Shown here: piece after piece, positions 26,608-63,565 of the stretch
How positions within the stretch are numbered: the stretch's first letter is position 1
Layout of the letters: each line of letters starts with the position of its first letter
DNA from: Nitrospirota bacterium
GTDB lineage: Bacteria > Nitrospirota > UBA9217
Direction: 5' to 3'
DNA length: 64,000 nucleotides
Assembly: GCA_029858565.1 (NCBI GenBank)
Contig: JAOUEV010000003.1
Span: 49,967 to 113,966, forward strand
Program-made: the position numbers and the translations under genes
The notes under the pieces: generated by a model
Database searches by the model: none
Seen by the model: only the letters and a program-made list of their open reading frames with translations
What the model was told of the DNA's origin: nothing

Positions 26608-26689
26608 TCGCACGAAGAAACAAAGACACGAAGAAAGTCGTTCCGGAAAAGGTGACAGCATTTCTCCGTGGCTTCGTGAATTCGTGCGA
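26608..26689. repeat. Palindromic element with 8-bp periodic arms (CACGAAGN)
   Basis: TCGCACGAAGAAACAAAGACACGAAGAAA pairs with TTTCTCCGTGGCTTCGTGAATTCGTGCGA. Confidence 0.75.
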
Positions 26690-48972: not shown

Positions 48973-49060
48973 TCTCACGAAGCCACGAAGTCACGAAGAA
49001 CGGCTTATAATCAGATACTTGTCAGTGTCATTCTTCGTGTCTTCGTGCCTTCGTGTGAGA
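48973..49060. repeat. Palindromic element with 8-bp periodic arms (CACGAAGN x3)
   Basis: TCTCACGAAGCCACGAAGTCACGAAGAA pairs with TTCTTCGTGTCTTCGTGCCTTCGTGTGAGA. Confidence 0.85.
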
Positions 49061-52168: not shown

Positions 52169-54136
52169 CTACAAGGATTGCGCAAGTCGGTGAAGCGTCG
52201 GAAAAGAGTCAGCGACCGCCGCAGTTTCTTCCTTCAAAAGCCTGATTGCTTCGGGAATGTGTTTCCTGAAATATGCTTTGCCTTTCACCATGGTCAGGAA
52301 TCCATAGGCGCCGAGCGCCTGCATGTGCCTCTGGAGACGGCAGGGGATCAGGCTTCGGCGGAAGATCTGCTCGTCGAATCCAAGAGCAGCCTTCTTCATC
52401 TCTTCTATATAGTAAACAAGCAGCCGGTCGCGCAGGAGGTCATGCAGCCGGTAATAAGGGTCCCAGAGGATCGATGCGATGTCGTAGGCAGGCGGGGCCA
52501 TGCGCGCTCCCTGGAAATCGATCACCTGAACGGTGTGATCGCTGATCATGATGTTCTGGGACTGGAAGTCACGGTGGATGATGGTCCTGGGACAGTCATC
52601 AACGGTCCTGGCAAGCCTGTGGAACTCCTCTTCCAGCTCCGGCCTGTTCTTGAGATCGATCCCTAGATATCCCTGAACAAACCGGTCGAGAAAATAGTTC
52701 GTTTCCCACCGCAGATACTCGTAATCAAAGATCCGCGCCTGGAGCAGGGGGCAGGAACCGACACCCTCCGTTGCACGGGAGTGGAGCTTGACCGCAACAT
52801 CCAGTACGCTTTTGTAAATGTTCCTGATCTGATCAGCTGTGCGCGGGAGCTTGAGATAAGCGTACAACGACCGGTCTCCCAGGTCCTCGAACAGTGCCCG
52901 TTTTGCAGTGTGGTGAGACGCGAGCAGCTTCGGCACCGGCACGGCATGGGATTCGAAGAACCGCGTATAGACCAGGTGCCGCTCGAAGTCCGGATCATCG
53001 GGCCGGCATTCCATCAGGACTGCGGAACGCTCCCCCTGCCTGATGCGATAGTAGCGGCGGTCCGAGCCGCCGAGACCGATCAAGAAAGCAGGGACAGGAA
53101 GTGCGGAGTGCGGAGTGCGGAATGCGAAATGGGAGTCGGAAGCGAAATGCGGGGCAAAAAGAGGGTCCGACAGGTGCACGGTTATTGTTTCAGCAGCGGT
53201 TTTCGCTGGCTGCATTTCCGATTCGTGAAGATCGATCGCATAGTCCGGTCCGATGATCCGGTTCCGGTGTTCGCCGGTCACGATGGCGCCGGGCATGATA
53301 ATGCAGTTCCTGAGCTTCGCGCCTGCTCCCACGGTGCTGTAGTTCTCCGCCGCGAGGTAGCCGTCGGCCTCGATGTCTCCGCAGGACGCGGAAGGGGAAA
53401 TATAGATCGTCTCGCCGTCCTTTGCAAGCGCATCAAGCACTGCCCTGCTGTAGGTCGCGGGATTGCCCACGTCGTTCCAGTATGCTCCGGTGACGTCATA
53501 GGCCCGGACCTTGTGGCCGGCCCTTGACGCGGCGATCCAGGCAACGGTTGCGTGGGAAACGCCGTCGGGCAGGAACTTCAGAATTTCAGGCGAATACACG
53601 GCGATGCCGGTATAGGCAACCTTGTCGGCAACCTTCGTGGGGTCGGGTCTAGATGCGCCGGGATTCTCGACATCGATTATCTGGTCCTGTTTGTCGATGA
53701 CCACATTGCTCAGTTCCGGCAGCCTGTGGCAGACCAGCGTTGCCATATTGCCTGAAGATAAATGTGTCTCGATCAGCTTGGCAAAATCGATATCCAGCAG
53801 GATGTCCGAGTTGTGGACAATGAAGTGGTTGCCCAGGAGAAAGCTTTCAGCGTTCTTGAGCGCTCCGCCGGTGCCGAGGATCGGGTCCTCAGGAAAGAAG
53901 GTGAAGCGATCCCGCCAGGGAGACATGGCAGCCCAGTTCATGAGCATCCGGGGCTTCCAGTGCAAATTCATGCCGATCTTGTTGTCGCAGACCTCGGTCA
54001 GTTTCTCGGCAATGCCCTGGATGATAGGCTTGCCCAGGACAGGAAGGAGCGGTTTGGGGATATGGTTCGTGGCCGGCCGGAGCCGTTCGCCGAGCCCGGC
54101 AGCGGGGAGGAAGATGTTGATGGGGAATTTATTCAT
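52169..54136 (-). CDS. Fused MurU-like nucleotidyltransferase / AmgK-like anomeric kinase
   Basis: N-terminal AAGLGERLRP..PKPL; C-terminal GGSDRRYYR, EDLGD, HRDFQSQN, IDFQGA, MQALGAYGFL. Confidence 0.88.
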   Translation of the reverse strand: MNKFPINIFLPAAGLGERLRPATNHIPKPLLPVLGKPIIQGIAEKLTEVCDNKIGMNLHWKPRMLMNWAAMSPWRDRFTFFPEDPILGTGGALKNAESFLLGNHFIVHNSDILLDIDFAKLIETHLSSGNMATLVCHRLPELSNVVIDKQDQIIDVENPGASRPDPTKVADKVAYTGIAVYSPEILKFLPDGVSHATVAWIAASRAGHKVRAYDVTGAYWNDVGNPATYSRAVLDALAKDGETIYISPSASCGDIEADGYLAAENYSTVGAGAKLRNCIIMPGAIVTGEHRNRIIGPDYAIDLHESEMQPAKTAAETITVHLSDPLFAPHFASDSHFAFRTPHSALPVPAFLIGLGGSDRRYYRIRQGERSAVLMECRPDDPDFERHLVYTRFFESHAVPVPKLLASHHTAKRALFEDLGDRSLYAYLKLPRTADQIRNIYKSVLDVAVKLHSRATEGVGSCPLLQARIFDYEYLRWETNYFLDRFVQGYLGIDLKNRPELEEEFHRLARTVDDCPRTIIHRDFQSQNIMISDHTVQVIDFQGARMAPPAYDIASILWDPYYRLHDLLRDRLLVYYIEEMKKAALGFDEQIFRRSLIPCRLQRHMQALGAYGFLTMVKGKAYFRKHIPEAIRLLKEETAAVADSFPTLHRLAQSL

Positions 54137-54172
54137 GTGCTAGTATCAATAAGCCTTAAAAGTCAACTGCAT

Positions 54173-54914
54173 TCTCGCGCGGAGGCGCAGAGGCGCAGGG
54201 GACGTCAAAGGCAATTTCTTGGGTTAGAAACTAAAAAATCAATCTTCAAGTCCATTTACGCAGCGAGTTATCCCGTTCTTCATTAGTTCTTCGCCGAAGT
54301 TCAGAAGGTATCCGAGTTTAAGGCCGGTCAAACGGATATGTGTTTGAACCTGCTTTTTGTGCGCTGCGGATGCGTGTTCAACTGATTTCAGCTCGACGAT
54401 AACTTTACTTTCAACAATAACGTCAGCCCGGAATCCCTCATCGAACTGTATCCCTCGAAACTGTATCGGAATGGGTATCTGGCGGTCAACAGTCAAGCCC
54501 TGTTCTCGCAAGACATGAACCAAGGCAACCTCATAGACGCTTTCCAGCAAGCCCGGTCCCAATTCTCGATGGACTTCAATCGCCGCTTCGACAATGATCG
54601 TCCCGATCTCGTTCTCTGTCATTCAGGTTCCCTGTGTCTATTCTTGGCACCCGAAACATGTTTTTTGGTTCCAATAGAGCAAATTCGATTACGAAAAGCC
54701 AAAACAAGAAAAGCTCTCTCGCGCAGAGGCGCTGAGGCGCTGAGTATTGCTTTGAGACCAGGACCTGATTCTAAGATTGTGCCTTCCCTGCGAGCTCTGC
54801 GCCCCTGCGCGAGACCGTTTCGAGGTTCGCTTCTTCCTTCCATGACAGCGTCAAGTTGTTTGCGTTCTTGAACTAGATTGGCTTTCCCCTGCGGCTCCGC
54901 GCCTCTGCGGGAAA
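54173..54914. mobile_element. Putative GxxExxY element bounded by 29-bp periodic inverted repeats
   Basis: Arms 54173-54201 and 54886-54914 match 24/29 as an IR; they enclose the GxxExxY gene and a nested empty copy (54717-54814). Mobility is inferred. Confidence 0.55.
54239..54622 (-). CDS. GxxExxY protein (PD-(D/E)XK fold)
   Basis: LGPGLLESVYE, FRAD, IVELKSVE, GYLLNFG. Confidence 0.93.
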   Translation of the reverse strand: MTENEIGTIIVEAAIEVHRELGPGLLESVYEVALVHVLREQGLTVDRQIPIPIQFRGIQFDEGFRADVIVESKVIVELKSVEHASAAHKKQVQTHIRLTGLKLGYLLNFGEELMKNGITRCVNGLED

Positions 54915-54926
54915 ACCGGTTTTGTT

Positions 54927-56111
54927 CTATTTATACAACAGATAATGCTTCCGAATCTTCTCGAATTCCCTCGCCTCTTCTTTCCACCATGCCTCCATCT
55001 CCTTCACATCCTTCCACGCCTCGATGTCCTTTCGCAGACGGTCGGTGCCGGCGAGGATGTCAATGGGCATGTTGATCTCTTCATATTCATAGGGCGGCTG
55101 TTTCCAGGCGAACTCCCGGGGCCAGGTATTGTGGATCGCTTTCAGGATCGCCACGCCGGTCCTGAAAGGCAGGAACTTCTCCCGGTCCGTGATGTGGATC
55201 TGGGCTCCGCCGCAGAGCCTGCCGCAGTGCTTCTGGAACGTGGGCTGGAAATACATGGGGCGGAACACCACGCCAGGCAGCTTGAACTCCTTCAACAGGT
55301 TGACGAGGGTCTCGGGATGGATAAAAGGCGCGCCGAAGATCTCAAAAGGACGCGTTGTGCCGCGGCCTTCGGAAAGGTTCGTGCCTTCGAGCAGGCACAT
55401 GCCCGGGTACACGATCGCGCTGTCGAGTATCGGAATGTTCGGCGACGGCAGGACCCAGGGAAGGATTGTTTCGTCGAACCACATCTTCCTTTTCCATCCC
55501 TCCATGGGCACCACCCGATAATGCATGCCGGGATAGAAAGCGTCTTCCAGGTAATGGCCGATCTCGGCAATGGTCATTCCATGGCGCACAGTGATGGGAC
55601 GGAGTCCGACAAAGGAGGCAAAACCGGGCTTCAGGACCGGTCCCTCGGTAAAGCGACCGGTGATCGGATTCGGCCGGTCAAGGACCACCACGGCTTTGCC
55701 CGCCTCGTGGCAGGCCTGCATGCAGAGATCAAGGGTCCAGATAAAGGTGTAGTACTTGCTGCCGATGTCCTGCATGTCAATGGCCAGGACATCGATATGC
55801 TTCAGCATTTCCAATGTCGGCTTCCGCACTTCCCCGTAAAGGCTGTAGACCGGCAGGCCGGTGGCGGGATCGCGGAAACCCTGCCACTCGACCATGTTGT
55901 CCTGGGTCTGGCCAAGGATGCCGTGCTGGGGGCCGAAGAGCGCTGCAAGCTTGAACTTCTTCGATCTTCTGAAGACGTCAACAGCATGCTCAAGCTTGCT
56001 GTTCACGCTCGCAGGATGGGCAACGAGCCCCACACGGCTGTTTTTGAGGTCTTTGGGCCAGAGTTTCTCGACAAGGTCGAGTCCGGTAAAGGTTTTCCTA
56101 GGTGACGGCAT
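54927..56111 (-). CDS. namZ: Exo-beta-N-acetylmuramidase (DUF1343/NamZ)
   Basis: FGPQHG, YSLYG, QDIG, LDRPNP, RHGMT, PSPN, SEGRGTTRPFE. Confidence 0.88.
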   Translation of the reverse strand: MPSPRKTFTGLDLVEKLWPKDLKNSRVGLVAHPASVNSKLEHAVDVFRRSKKFKLAALFGPQHGILGQTQDNMVEWQGFRDPATGLPVYSLYGEVRKPTLEMLKHIDVLAIDMQDIGSKYYTFIWTLDLCMQACHEAGKAVVVLDRPNPITGRFTEGPVLKPGFASFVGLRPITVRHGMTIAEIGHYLEDAFYPGMHYRVVPMEGWKRKMWFDETILPWVLPSPNIPILDSAIVYPGMCLLEGTNLSEGRGTTRPFEIFGAPFIHPETLVNLLKEFKLPGVVFRPMYFQPTFQKHCGRLCGGAQIHITDREKFLPFRTGVAILKAIHNTWPREFAWKQPPYEYEEINMPIDILAGTDRLRKDIEAWKDVKEMEAWWKEEAREFEKIRKHYLLYK

Positions 56112-56152
56112 GGACGGATTATAGTTGCTCACTCCGGGAAGTGCAACAGGAA

Positions 56153-56213
56153 ATTCCGGGAAACCCATTCCGGGAAACCCTGCTTGACAGGCTTTGAACA
56201 TGGATGATACACT
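56153..56213 (+). promoter_or_regulatory. Promoter with tandem 14-bp direct repeats upstream of -35
   Basis: ATTCCGGGAAACCC x2 (56153-56180), TTGACA at 56184, TGnTACACT at 56205-13. Confidence 0.55.
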
Positions 56214-56268
56214 GAAGCTGTTTTGATCATCATGTCGGTGTCGCGAGTTCCTGCCTAAAGGGGATACC

Positions 56269-57045
56269 ATGAAAAAAGCGTTCTTCCTGCTCTTTCTCTG
56301 TGGCTTGATCCTTGCCCTGAACAACACTGCCCTTGCCCTGTATCAATGGGTAGATAAAGAGGGCAATCTCCATATCTCTGATTATCCTCCGGGGGAGAGT
56401 AAAGCGGCAGAGGAACAGGCTGCTCCGGAACCGGAAAAACCGCGAGCTGTTCCGCAACCATCACCAGCTGTGATACCGCCTCCACCATCGCCGGTTAAAG
56501 CATCTCCAGCGCCAGCACCCGCTGCACCAGGACCGACCCAGCAGGCGCCTGAGGCGGTAATTCCCCAGCCCGCATCGGTCCCGACGATCACCATGCAAGC
56601 TGCTCCAGTGACGCAGCCTGCGCCGATAGAGACCCAGCCGCAACCCATGCCTTTCAGCGCGCCACAACCGGGGCAAAACCCTCCGCCAGGGCTGGTAGCT
56701 GCTGTAGTCGGCGGTTTTTTAATGGTGATCATGGTCATCGGTTTAGCGGTATATATCTATTCTTCGCTCTGCCTGTATCTGATCGCCAAGAAGCGGAACC
56801 TTGACGAGGCCTGGGCAGCCTGGATCCCGCTCCTGCAGATGTGGCCTCTCATGAGCGCAGCGGGAAAACCGCTCTGGTGGATCATCCTGTTGTTCATTCC
56901 CTTTGTCAACGCCGTTATCGGCATCTATCTCTGGATGTGTATTGCCGAGAACCTGGGAAGGAACAAGTGGCTCGGCCTGCTCATGCTGATACCTGTCGTG
57001 AACTTTGTGTTCATGGGCGTGTTGGCGTTTTCCAAGTCGGAGTGA
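56269..57045 (+). CDS. DUF4124 + Pro-rich linker + DUF5684-like membrane protein
   Basis: Signal peptide, LYQWVDKEG..HISDYPP, AWAAWIP, GKPLWWIILLFIPFVN. Confidence 0.8.
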   Translation: MKKAFFLLFLCGLILALNNTALALYQWVDKEGNLHISDYPPGESKAAEEQAAPEPEKPRAVPQPSPAVIPPPPSPVKASPAPAPAAPGPTQQAPEAVIPQPASVPTITMQAAPVTQPAPIETQPQPMPFSAPQPGQNPPPGLVAAVVGGFLMVIMVIGLAVYIYSSLCLYLIAKKRNLDEAWAAWIPLLQMWPLMSAAGKPLWWIILLFIPFVNAVIGIYLWMCIAENLGRNKWLGLLMLIPVVNFVFMGVLAFSKSE

Positions 57046-57294: not shown

Positions 57295-58224
57295 ATGACT
57301 AAATCAATACATCGTAAGAAACACAGCATAACAAAGGCGAATGTAGTAAGAGAAACAGCTCGCCAGTATTTGCCTCCAATCAAGTTGGTGGACTCTGTGA
57401 TTTTTCAGGGCGACGCGCAGCACATTTTAGCTCGTTTACCGAAAGAATCTGTTCAATGCGTTGTAACATCTCCTCCCTATTGGGGACTTAGGGACTATAA
57501 CATCGACGGTCAAATTGGGCTTGAAGAGACCCTTCCGCAGTTCATTAATAGGCTTGTGACGATATTCCGGGAAATCCATCGTGTTCTTAAACCTTCAGGT
57601 ACTGTATGGCTTAATATCGGAGACGGATATACGAGTGGCAATCGAGGTTGGCGTGCTCCCGATAAGAAGAATCCAGCGCGGGCTATGTCTGTGAGGCCAA
57701 ATACCCCCGAAGGCCTGAAGCCGAAAGATCTTATAGGAGTTCCTTGGAGATTAGCTCTTGCTTTGCAACAGGATGGCTGGTTTTTGCGTAGCGACATCGT
57801 CTGGAATAAGCCAAATGCCATGCCCGAGAGCGTCAAGGATCGTCCAACGCGCGCGCATGAGTATATCTTCATGTTTTCAAAGAATGAGAAGTACTACTAC
57901 GATTATGAAGCTATAAAGGAGCCACGTGACGACGGAAAGGGGCAGCGGAACAAGCGAAGTGTATGGGACATCAATACGGAACCGTTCAAAGAAGCTCATT
58001 TCGCAACCTTCCCTTCTAAATTGATTGAGCCTTGTATTAGCGCTGGAAGTCGAGCTGGCGATTTTGTGCTTGATCCCTTCTTTGGCTCGGGCACAGTCGG
58101 TGTCGTCTGCAATCGGCTCGGTCGGAAGTATATAGGCATTGAATTGCATCCGGCGTACATTGCTCTCGCAGAAAAAAGGATGGCATCGAATAATGGGACG
58201 AATGGTGACAATAAGTCTAAGTAA
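57295..58224 (+). CDS. Beta-class N4-cytosine DNA methyltransferase
   Basis: TSPPYW precedes HFATFP and VLDPFFGSGT. Confidence 0.92.
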   Translation: MTKSIHRKKHSITKANVVRETARQYLPPIKLVDSVIFQGDAQHILARLPKESVQCVVTSPPYWGLRDYNIDGQIGLEETLPQFINRLVTIFREIHRVLKPSGTVWLNIGDGYTSGNRGWRAPDKKNPARAMSVRPNTPEGLKPKDLIGVPWRLALALQQDGWFLRSDIVWNKPNAMPESVKDRPTRAHEYIFMFSKNEKYYYDYEAIKEPRDDGKGQRNKRSVWDINTEPFKEAHFATFPSKLIEPCISAGSRAGDFVLDPFFGSGTVGVVCNRLGRKYIGIELHPAYIALAEKRMASNNGTNGDNKSK

Positions 58225-62060: not shown

Positions 62061-62249
62061 TTCGCGCAGAGACGCGGAGACGCAGAGAAAAGCAGATCAG
62101 GAACCTTTAATTCAGCCACGGAAGACGCGGAAGAAGCAAAGCATTTCCTCCGTTGGTTTTAAAGCCGAGATTAAGGCTTTTGATTTTTCCGCCTCTTCCG
62201 TGGCCATTTTTCTTTTGCCGTTCCCTGCGCCTCTGCGTCTCCGCGCGAG
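62061..62249. repeat. Nested palindromic elements
   Basis: Outer CGCAGAGA x3 arms (62061-89/62221-49); inner GCCACGGAAGACGCGGAA...TTCCGCCTCTTCCGTGGC (62115-62204). Confidence 0.85.
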
Positions 62250-62348
62250 AATGGTTTTGTTTCGATGTTTCTCCAGGATCTATGCCCCTATAACCGGCCT
62301 TCCATGGTATAATGCTTCCGCTGTTGGTCATGGGGACAGCAACACTTC

Positions 62349-63407: not shown

Positions 63408-63421
63408 GTATCAAGACCTGT

Positions 63422-63517
63422 TTCGCGCAGGGACGCAGAGCTCGCAGGGAAGACAAGTATCAAAGAACATGACCACGTCTTTGAGGTTTTCCCAGCGTCT
63501 CAGCGCCTCTGCGCGAG
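63422..63517. repeat. Palindromic element, close copy of 54717-54814
   Basis: TTCGCGCAGGGACGCAGAGCTCGCAGGGAA...CAGCGTCTCAGCGCCTCTGCGCGAG resembles the reverse complement of 54717-54814. Confidence 0.85.
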
Positions 63518-63565
63518 GACGGTTTTGGTGTGTCAGCCTTGTCTCATAATAAAGGAGCAGCCATC

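Follow-up and report, generated by a model that had tools for sequence, protein, structure and literature searches.

Introduction

According to the portions of PMC4990558 drawn on here, the 23S rRNA intervening sequence (IVS) of Coxiella is a 428-nt 'selfish' element with an S23p open reading frame (ORF), the ATG of which is directly preceded by three tandem heptamers (GACAGAT); its terminal inverted repeats pair into a 28-bp stem, and RNase III cuts the element out. The same portions report the ORF as decaying and cite an older idea that it serves mobility, the selfish or mobile nature of the IVS having been suspected for decades. An element of comparable anatomy is described here from a Nitrospirota bacterium: in a 64,000-nt stretch of its contig JAOUEV010000003.1 (positions 49,967 to 113,966; the whole of this stretch is termed the window), a small gene of the GxxExxY family (PF13366/TIGR04256) lies between two inverted arms, each consisting of a short cap and three 8-nt units (CGCNGAGN). 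In the literature searched, this large family has no known function, is named in few papers and is tied to repeats in none; no description of the association between gene and arms was found under GxxExxY/PF13366/PF05635 or the arm sequences, most subscription journals and supplements lying outside the search, so that a mention elsewhere is possible. The gene with its arms looks like an undescribed kind of selfish DNA element.

Like the 23S IVSs of Coxiella, Leptospira and Salmonella, the GxxExxY element contains one small ORF within the loop that its terminal inverted repeat closes (stem of about 28 bp), has short tandem repeats just before the ATG (three 8-nt units abut it in compact copies) and, as predicted from its operon position, is located inside a host transcript. 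Unlike the IVS, its ORF encodes a PD-(D/E)XK nuclease (PF13366) instead of the PF05635 four-helix bundle, its units comprise 8-10 nt instead of 7, and the window's copy lies between namZ and murU/amgK-like genes, not in helix 25 or 45 of the 23S rRNA; whereas the Coxiella ORF is decaying, the GxxExxY ORF is under strong purifying selection. The IVS is the closest anatomical relative, and by analogy the GxxExxY element looks like its sister with another ORF, residing in operons and not in rRNA.

Repetitive extragenic palindromic (REP) sequences are imperfect hairpins with a conserved 5' GTAG head. With REP sequences and the REP-associated tyrosine transposases (RAYTs), the GxxExxY element shares a gene bordered on either side by a short palindromic repeat in inverted orientation, the dispersal of this repeat without the gene (92 distinct arms versus 7 genes in the window's genome), the correspondence of repeat subtype and gene subtype, and the lack of repeats in genomes without the gene. 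It differs in its enzyme, which is of the PD-(D/E)XK and not of the HUH Y1 transposase type, in its repeats, which are periodic 8-nt arrays with a CTCG/CTCC cap and a (T/A)NCTC(G/C) start, and in the occurrence of several paralogs within a genome, the arm type being specific to each, together with rampant horizontal transfer. Inverted ends of repeated short modules, gene-bearing and gene-less forms and presence or absence at orthologous sites are shared with miniature inverted-repeat transposable elements (MITEs) and terminal-inverted-repeat transposons; yet the GxxExxY element lacks a DDE or serine/tyrosine transposase, shows no target-site duplication in the junctions read, has gene-less copies without a common interior and is only about 450 nt long. 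Homing endonuclease genes, free-standing and intron-borne, include PD-(D/E)XK examples such as I-Ssp6803I; they resemble the GxxExxY element as small nuclease genes that form selfish inserts with filled and empty alleles and frequent horizontal transfer, but periodic inverted arms are no feature of theirs, and the GxxExxY element is associated with neither intron nor intein and occupies varying sites (namZ|murU, nuoF|nuoG and others) without any single homing site being evident.

Enclosure of GxxExxY genes by periodic inverted arms

The ORF of the window matched the PF13366 (PDDEXK_3) profile with an E value of 3.7e-39 (134.1 bits; cut-off 22) and the TIGR04256 GxxExxY profile with 7.4e-40 (135.9 bits; cut-off 35), and a Shine-Dalgarno-like AGGGA is positioned about 8 nt 5' of its ATG. 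Its arms were located by repeat search at 54172-54202 and 54885-54915 (31 nt, 84% complementary) and, read by hand, at 54173-54201 and 54886-54914, with 24 of 29 positions complementary. The initial sequence-only reading of the window, which had placed a PD-(D/E)XK-fold GxxExxY gene between such arms, was thus correct for the gene (54239-54622), its enclosure and, as detailed below, its predicted fold. Its naming of the neighbours holds for namZ, whereas murU-amgK can be kept only as a '-like' designation: the best NCBIfam matches of 52169-54136 are AmgK and MurU, both below their cut-offs, for which reason 'MurU/AmgK-like fusion' is the safe name. All three gene-less copies that it had listed are present (54717-54814, 62061-62253 and 63413-63520); the first, however, lies nested inside the large palindrome.

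The arrangement is not restricted to this locus. All seven PF13366 genes of the window's genome (G000; 3.92 Mb, 144 contigs, 57% G+C; other G-numbers denote relatives, L-numbers fetched loci and C-numbers after G000 its contigs) are, according to the inspected flanks, enclosed by inverted arms of short periodic units, each with a different unit: CACAGAGR; CACGGAAGA...CGGATA; CACGGATACA; CACGAAGG; CGCAGAGG; CGCTAAGC / CGCAAAG; and CACGGATGAA. The seven paralogs are co-directional with their neighbours and occupy seven different junctions, one of them exactly between nuoF and nuoG, with no common target motif seen. The 15 GxxExxY genes of five relatives (G094, G013, G021, G121, G012) are likewise enclosed without exception (units of 8-10 nt), as are five ORF-bearing nuoF|nuoG orthologues from relatives.

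For a cross-phylum comparison, the window protein was scanned against one genome per species, which yielded 276 relatives; the best 80 of these (65-80% amino-acid identity, many phyla) provided 74 loci whose flanks comprise at least 120 nt on either side, a set that was fetched with the window protein and is dominated by one clade. An exact two-unit pattern identified upstream arms in 49, downstream arms in 44 and arms on both sides in 37 of these loci; when up to two substitutions were allowed, the numbers rose to 68, 68 and 63, respectively, compared with 15 of 275 far-flank control windows. The density of the exact pattern was 6.9 per kb near the gene versus 0.20 per kb at distances above 500 nt, and an anchored parse recovered a cap with 3+3 units in 43 of 62 loci; four Bacillota copies have degenerate arms only. 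The canonical form in other genomes consists of a cap (T/A)NCTC(G/C), three units C-R-C-N-R-A-G-N, the ORF, 5 to 8 nt and the inverted arm; in the compact form, (T)CTCG CGCAGAGG CGCGGAGG CGCAGAGR is followed by ATG...stop, 5-8 nt and CCTCTGCG CCTCNGCG CCTCTGCG GGAGA, the whole element measuring only about 450 nt. By manual count, no fewer than 27 of the 74 loci have an arm that ends at most 13 nt from the ATG. Neighbouring genes are co-oriented with the GxxExxY gene upstream in 50 of 68 and downstream in 51 of 65 cases. The observation is confirmed and reaches far beyond the window.

Two enclosed copies deserve separate mention. In a Nitrospirota metagenome-assembled genome (L044:1030-1640), a complete GxxExxY element with CGCAGAG arms is situated within an unrelated 25-nt perfect inverted repeat (AGATTAATCGTAACTATTCAGCATA) and may have inserted into another palindromic element. 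At L013 (G000:C142:9700-9760), the open frame of a paralog extends upstream through its arm (...HHRDTEE...); annotation may thus mistake an arm for an N-terminal extension, or a stand-alone arm for a small protein.

Gene-less palindromes and their co-occurrence with the gene

The three-unit arm pattern (at most one mismatch) occurs 10 times in the window compared with a mean of 0.00 in 100 dinucleotide-preserving shuffles. Throughout G000, a combined periodicity and inverted-repeat scan gave 89 pairs with loops mostly of 30-120 nt, and the exact (CRCDRAG N) x3 pattern gave 93 matches versus 1 in the reversed-sequence control. The 92 distinct arms of the genome belong to the classes CAC-AAG (32), CGC-AAG (30), CAC-GAG (19) and CGC-GAG (11), all four of which have a resident gene-bearing copy. 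Arm polarity is strict: on either strand the purine-rich reading comes first in 18 pairs and the opposite order in none.

In a blastn comparison of four gene-less copies with the element, the shared sequence was limited to the arms and about 10-16 inner bases, the loops being unrelated; an origin of the gene-less palindromes as simple deletion derivatives was therefore rejected. According to a crude ORF map, 46 of 64 arm-bearing gaps lie between co-directional genes, and the gap classes are near the genome baseline of 1577/468/434. A terminator-like role was also discarded, as no terminator was predicted in 54000-55100 and convergent gaps are, on the same map, not enriched (7/64 versus 468/2479 in the baseline). 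An Rfam search of the palindromes returned chance-level miRNA matches only. The 12 PF01797 (Y1_Tnp, RAYT-like) genes of G000 were rejected as mobiliser, all of them being associated with other inverted repeats and none with periodic arms. These Y1_Tnp matches (e.g. C88:30680-31009, C72:2197-2520 and C123:6489-6812), eight of which fall in open frames of about 290-340 aa, are flanked by inverted repeats of their own (GGGTCAGGTCTAC... and GGGACGTTGTTACTTACGTTGCG...) and constitute a second repeat system of the genome.

Gene and arms go together between genomes. Within a sample of 150 genomes of the phylum, PF13366 was found in 20 of 27 family-mates compared with 7 of 123 other genomes. Three-unit arms were absent from five family-mates without PF13366 (G082, G110, G063, G005, G151: 0 each) and occurred once in a sixth (G100), whereas genomes of the same family with PF13366 contained 93 (G000), 21 (G012), 42 (G019), 54 (G141), 106 (G117), 40 (G106), 3 (G013), 27 (G094), 17 (G021) and 43 (G121); as the genomes are related, these co-occurrence counts are not independent. 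Two genera (g11 and g19) hold both gene-bearing and gene-less genomes, so that the contrast can be drawn twice within a genus. The two genes of G094 are enclosed by CAC-AAG arms, and the 27 arms listed for this genome belong to the AAG class without exception. Five genomes reached via loci in other phyla contain 2-10 GxxExxY genes and 8-92 arms. In the cultured non-pathogen Pelotalea chapellei DSM 13688, 6 genes and 36 arms were counted. A Verrucomicrobiae record reached via L089 contains a dense palindrome field around a single GxxExxY gene (319437-319784): along some 35 kb (G167:C1:315800-351000), CGCAGAGG-type arms are present by the dozen and switch strand at intervals of 50-150 nt.

Arm type, protein tree and insertion sites

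On a tree of 103 proteins, of which 68 rows with a named phylum represent 18 phyla, label changes were compared with 200 shuffles. The CGC/CAC prefix of the arms changes 5 times (21-31 in the shuffles) and the unit core 19 times (30-35), whereas the host phylum changes 33 times on the 68 rows (43-53) and the arm label 12 times on the same rows. Arm type tracks the protein tree far better than host phylum does. Since related sequences share labels, these counts indicate that arms and gene stay linked when transferred and do not by themselves demonstrate co-evolution; G010 at nuoF|nuoG is a counter-example.

The window's copy is an insertion. A DNA search of 40 relatives gave matches in 24, most of which have the namZ and murU-like flanks side by side; in all ten relatives read base by base, the murU|namZ spacing is 91-217 nt without GxxExxY, compared with 790 nt in G000, so that the order namZ-GxxExxY-murU is not conserved. 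A gene-less periodic palindrome is nevertheless present at murU|namZ in nearly every relative, and the junction is an insertion hot spot. The units differ between the relatives (CACGGAGA, CGCAAAGA, CACGAAGG, CGCAGAG, CACGGATAA, CGCAGAT and CGCTAAGG); as the unit differs by genus (L001-L012), the six units of a palindrome must change jointly, be it that another copy replaces them or that they evolve in concert. Some of these palindromes are nested (L005, L008, L009), as also seen in the window, and loops seem to be preferred landing places for palindromes.

At nuoF|nuoG, gene-bearing copies are found in G000, G001, G012, G014, G019 and G010 (five genera) with 70-74% DNA identity through the ORF; the junction is empty in G015, where stop and start overlap (ATGA), a plain spacer of 73 nt in G005, and occupied by gene-less periodic palindromes with other units in G003 (the window's genus), G018, G013 and G022. 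The arms read GACACTGAGGACACTGA / TCAGTGTCCTCAGTGTC in G001, G019 and G010 and CCACGGAAGAGGCGGATA / TATCCGCCTCTTCCGTGG in G000, both sides having changed together. Because these orthologues share the site while their arms changed on both sides, some copies are old residents with arms evolving in concert, and the nuoF|nuoG copy is an old, mostly vertical resident.

Predicted fold and conservation of the GxxExxY protein

The PF13366 proteins of G000 share 32-50% identity with the window's copy, and G24, E27, Y30, D67, E77, K79 and Q91 are present in all seven; among 77 homologues, D67, E77 and K79 are retained without exception. The median ratio of non-synonymous to synonymous substitution rates was 0.10 over 107 pairs, and by these comparisons the protein is under strong purifying selection and the gene has been kept working.

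The AlphaFold (AF2) model reached a predicted local distance difference test score (pLDDT) of 92.4 and a predicted template modelling score (pTM) of 0.86. VIA-align matched it to 3ijm (Z 8.5), the nuclease domain of BpuSI (Z 8.4), Cas4 SSO0001 (Z 7.6), the nuclease domain of HsdR (Z 7.5), Hjc (Z 6.4) and tRNA-splicing endonucleases (Z 5.0-5.3), and Foldseek to Cas4 (E 7.6e-4). The predicted fold is that of a minimal restriction-endonuclease-like PD-(D/E)XK protein; since the scores are middling, the matches give the fold class and not the function. A D...ExK triad is the motif of metal-dependent DNases and not the triad of splicing endonucleases. A sequence search of solved structures revealed no relative (best E 0.12), and neither the PADLOC nor the PHROG profiles matched the protein (0 families in each library).

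PF05635 genes in analogous palindromes

Periodic palindromes also enclose genes of the family to which the IVS ORF belongs. Five PF05635 (four-helix-bundle, 'S23p') genes of G000 score above the cut-off; by our own reading, short periodic repeats surround all five, and in three cases the gene is enclosed in arms of 7-nt units (GACGAGA, TGCGRAG and AAGAATT; coordinates in Table 1). A double dissociation, with 7-nt arms going with PF05635 and 8-nt arms with PF13366, is not clean: in G010, 20 TGCGRAD arms (7-nt unit) were counted but no PF05635 gene was found, and in G019 and G141 5-7 such genes are accompanied by only 1-2 of these arms.

Palindromes of 7-nt periodicity (ATTGCGG / AGTGCGG) are also present in several spacers of a cluster of seven tRNA genes (Pro, Arg, His, Arg, Arg, Lys, Leu; identified with aragorn) at G000:C14:127700-129500. 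The last approximately 33 bases of the tRNA-Arg(tct) gene of this cluster are duplicated around an insert of about 140 nt.

Predicted RNA stems

The outer arms of the window element are paired in both the minimum-free-energy and the centroid fold (z -3.6), and in the compact copy L070 a stem of about 30 bp begins right at the ATG (z -6.9). In the compact copy, the GGAGG of the second unit is situated about 8 nt before the ATG, so that the ribosome-binding site would be masked by the predicted stem. Just ahead of the next gene, the 3' cap has the sequence GGGAGAA, in line with a conserved G.G mismatch of the two caps (CTCG versus CTCC). Neither a promoter-like site upstream of the window's ORF nor a terminator was predicted. 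In one metatranscriptome run containing 0.19 of the words, a single 220-nt contig covers 54754-54973, with nothing over the ORF or the other arm. A plain hairpin requires no periodicity, and the periodic inverted 8-nt modules fit repeated protein-binding sites at the ends of the element; probably both the RNA and the DNA level matter.

Interpretation and rival explanations

The element occupies intergenic positions, in most cases in the orientation of the adjacent genes, and some orthologous sites contain it while others do not. Genome by genome, it co-occurs with tens of gene-less palindromes that have the same kind of arms, and both inheritance and horizontal transfer across many phyla involve the package as a unit. 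That gene and arms constitute a heritable, horizontally mobile package with gene-less relatives is very probable. The best reading, to which we assign a probability of about one half, is that of a compact selfish palindromic element with IVS-like anatomy and gene-less non-autonomous relatives. The sequence-only reading had proposed an autonomous REP/RAYT-like element; its expectations of arms enriched around GxxExxY genes (7/7 in the genome, 15/15 in relatives, 63/74 versus 15/275 controls across phyla), of palindromes scarce in genomes without the gene (0-1 in six family-mates versus 3-106 in nine with it and 93 in G000), of a gene order that is not vertically conserved (ten relatives) and of arm subtypes that follow the protein phylogeny (5 prefix changes versus 21-31) agree with the present data. 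Its analogy to RAYTs and REPINs stands as regards a dispersed repeat around a gene; membership does not, in view of the missing HUH Y1 domain and the different ends of the Y1_Tnp genes. The element is not a member of the REP/RAYT group and at most works like one.

As to mechanism, the most economical reading, which we rate at slightly less than even odds from the sequence data, assigns the action on the arms to the nuclease. It would act on the periodic arms at the DNA level, each 8-bp unit serving as a binding module, and would move or maintain its own element and, in trans, also the gene-less palindromes in the manner of RAYT/REPIN or transposase/MITE pairs. In the host operon transcript, the arms may pair to a stem of about 28-32 bp that would hide the Shine-Dalgarno sequence of the ORF (GGAGG, second unit) and, by analogy with the 23S IVS, would be a likely RNase III substrate; such a stem could keep the nuclease level low and the insertion tolerable, and the 3' end GGGAGAA might provide the next host gene with a ribosome-binding-like stretch.

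Several results weigh against the reading as a selfish element driven by its nuclease. The AAG-class arms of G021 and the GAG-class arms of G121 (a genome 91% complete) have no resident gene with matching arms, and the gene-less copies, unlike those of a typical MITE family, do not share their loops; the proposal that the empty palindromes are non-autonomous partners is accordingly borne out in their co-occurrence with the gene, only partially in the subtype match of these two genomes, and not in any common interior. The kinship of the genomes counted and the one clade that dominates the cross-phylum set are to be added. The nuoF|nuoG copy is an old, mostly vertical resident, and at this site G010 combines a G000/G012-like protein with G001/G019-like arms. 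Neither a target-site duplication nor a conserved target was seen in the junctions read, the relatives being too diverged (about 70-80% DNA identity) for base-exact borders. Because PF05635, a non-nuclease family, occupies analogous periodic palindromes, the arms are not peculiar to the GxxExxY enzyme and mobility may need no nuclease; the 7-nt arms are, in turn, not cleanly linked to PF05635. The likeness to the IVS therefore cuts both ways, providing a precedent for RNA processing, yet with a non-nuclease in the same niche. On the RNA side, no sense-strand G-U excess was present in the arm mismatches (67 G-U versus 50 A-C, 53 loci, p = 0.14), which neither supports nor refutes an RNA-only stem, and variable unit positions were complementary in register in 182 of 340 cases versus 320 of 676 when shifted; as this excess is weak, selection for an exact RNA stem is not demonstrated. 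Finally, the proposed link between nuclease and arms is drawn from sequence data.

The occurrence of two unrelated protein families in the same kind of palindrome would be expected if the palindromes themselves were the elements and owed their spread or maintenance to host functions or another factor, the GxxExxY and four-helix-bundle ORFs being cargo or secondary loop invaders and the nuclease unrelated to the arms. Most palindromes are indeed gene-less (92 distinct arms versus 7 genes), their loops are unrelated between copies and, as the nested palindromes demonstrate, accept insertions, and a gene-less palindrome occupies murU|namZ in nearly every relative. Such a passenger role is nonetheless unlikely: the arms accompany the gene from phylum to phylum and track its tree, 0-1 arms occur in family-mates that lack it, the 12 Y1_Tnp genes of G000 carry other inverted repeats, and in compact copies the arm abuts the ATG and supplies the ribosome-binding site, which argues for an ORF built into the element. 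Still somewhat less probable is a domesticated RNA device, i.e. operon-internal hairpins serving the host as processing sites, mRNA stabilisers or for translational coupling, with GxxExxY as a host-useful nuclease gated by them. The persistence of palindromes at the same intergenic positions in many genera, the 46 of 64 arm-bearing gaps between co-directional genes, the 7-nt palindromes between seven tRNA genes, the strong predicted stems that hide the Shine-Dalgarno sequence, the purifying selection on the protein and the old, vertical nuoF|nuoG copy would be compatible with it; the gap classes are, however, near the genome baseline (1577/468/434), close relatives lack arms entirely, the nuoF|nuoG junction of G015 is tight, no sense-strand G-U excess or selection for an exact stem at variable positions is seen, the host phylum changes at least 33 times on the 68-row tree, and PADLOC and PHROG gave no match.

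An excision at the RNA level, by which the protein as an endoribonuclease would cut its own element from the host transcript in an intron-like manner and the host would ligate or tolerate the cut, is very improbable. The fold class does include tRNA-splicing endonucleases (Z 5.0-5.3), and the elements lie in operons, the 7-nt class in a tRNA cluster. The kept D...ExK triad is a DNase motif, though, DNA nucleases rank first among the fold matches, a G-U bias is not seen, and the single 220-nt metatranscriptome contig shows no joint. IVS excision provides a precedent, but the IVS is cut by host RNase III, as stated in the portions of PMC4990558 used here.

The selfish-element reading can be extended, tentatively and with odds clearly below even, to an unrecognised pan-bacterial class of autonomous mobile elements, in which a PD-(D/E)XK transposase or homing enzyme of about 125 aa would read arrays of 8-bp modules and the 23S IVS would be the four-helix-bundle branch of the same superfamily. 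Such a joint superfamily would explain the nature of IVSs and the origin of the palindromes dispersed in many uncultured phyla. Should the nuclease act on the arms, it would represent a new enzyme class for repeat mobilisation beside RAYTs and DDE transposases, with a simple modular protein-DNA recognition code of 8-bp units varying with the protein clade, and many intergenic palindromes of environmental bacteria would find an origin. In any case, GxxExxY gains a concrete, testable context as the coding core of an approximately 450-nt package with modular ends that crosses phyla and seeds tens of palindromes; and the shared stem, the tandem repeats before the ATG and the single small ORF make the 30-year-old IVS question (mobility and role of the ORF) testable in genomes with both elements. 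In practical terms, the arm repeats break assemblies and create spurious ORFs, such as those of peptides that read through arms.

Structure of the window locus and further observations

In gene orientation, the namZ stop codon is followed by the purine-rich arm, about 70 nt, the small palindrome (54814->54717), about 95 nt, the ORF, 37 nt, the pyrimidine-rich arm, 35 nt and the murU-like ATG. The large palindrome encloses the small one, which lies between its upstream arm and the start of the ORF; the window thus contains a nested, non-compact and older-looking form of the element. The coordinates of the locus and of the gene-less palindromes of the window are compiled in Table 1.

Table 1. 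Positions of the GxxExxY element, its host genes and gene-less palindromes in the window, and of arm-enclosed PF05635 loci elsewhere in the same genome.
Feature	Position	Strand	Remarks
GxxExxY / PDDEXK_3 gene	54239..54622	-	127 aa; G24, E27, Y30 motif; triad D67, E77, K79
Upstream (5') arm, gene orientation	54886..54914	-	CCCGCAGAGG CGCGGAGC CGCAGGGG; three 8-nt units read purine-rich; shortly past namZ stop codon
Downstream (3') arm, gene orientation	54173..54201	-	CCCCTGCG CCTCTGCG CCTCCGCG CGAGA; pyrimidine-rich; ends 35 nt short of murU/amgK-like start codon
NamZ exo-beta-N-acetylmuramidase, upstream host gene	54927..56327	-	NamZ_N + NamZ_C domains
MurU/AmgK-like fusion, downstream host gene	52169..54136	-	NTP_transferase + APH domains
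Gene-less palindrome, unit type as window element	54717..54814	.	arms ~54717-54745 and ~54786-54814, loop ~40 nt
Gene-less palindrome, CGCAGAG-type outer arms	62061..62253	.	3' arm and ~16 inner bases 89% complementary to 54170-54214
Second palindrome, unit GCCACGGAAGACGCGGAAG, nested in loop of 62061-62253	62115..62204	.	arms 62115-62140 / 62179-62204
Gene-less palindrome, CGCAGAG/CGCTGAG type	63413..63520	.	78% identity over 98 nt to 54718-54815
Gene-less palindrome, CACGAAG unit type	48976..49055	.	same arm type as another G000 GxxExxY paralog (C100)
Gene-less palindrome, CACGAAG/CACAAAG unit type	26611..26686	.	three-unit pattern match
Arm-enclosed PF05635 locus (L020), outside window	G000:C7:9116-9626		GACGAGA
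Arm-enclosed PF05635 locus (L022), outside window	G000:C93:8415-8908		
Arm-enclosed PF05635 locus (L021), outside window	G000:C94:141-656		

Apart from the palindromes, the 5' part of the namZ frame contains an exact 14-nt tandem duplication (ATTCCGGGAAACCC x2) at 56153-56180, a third copy of which, 93% identical, is located at 57564-57577.

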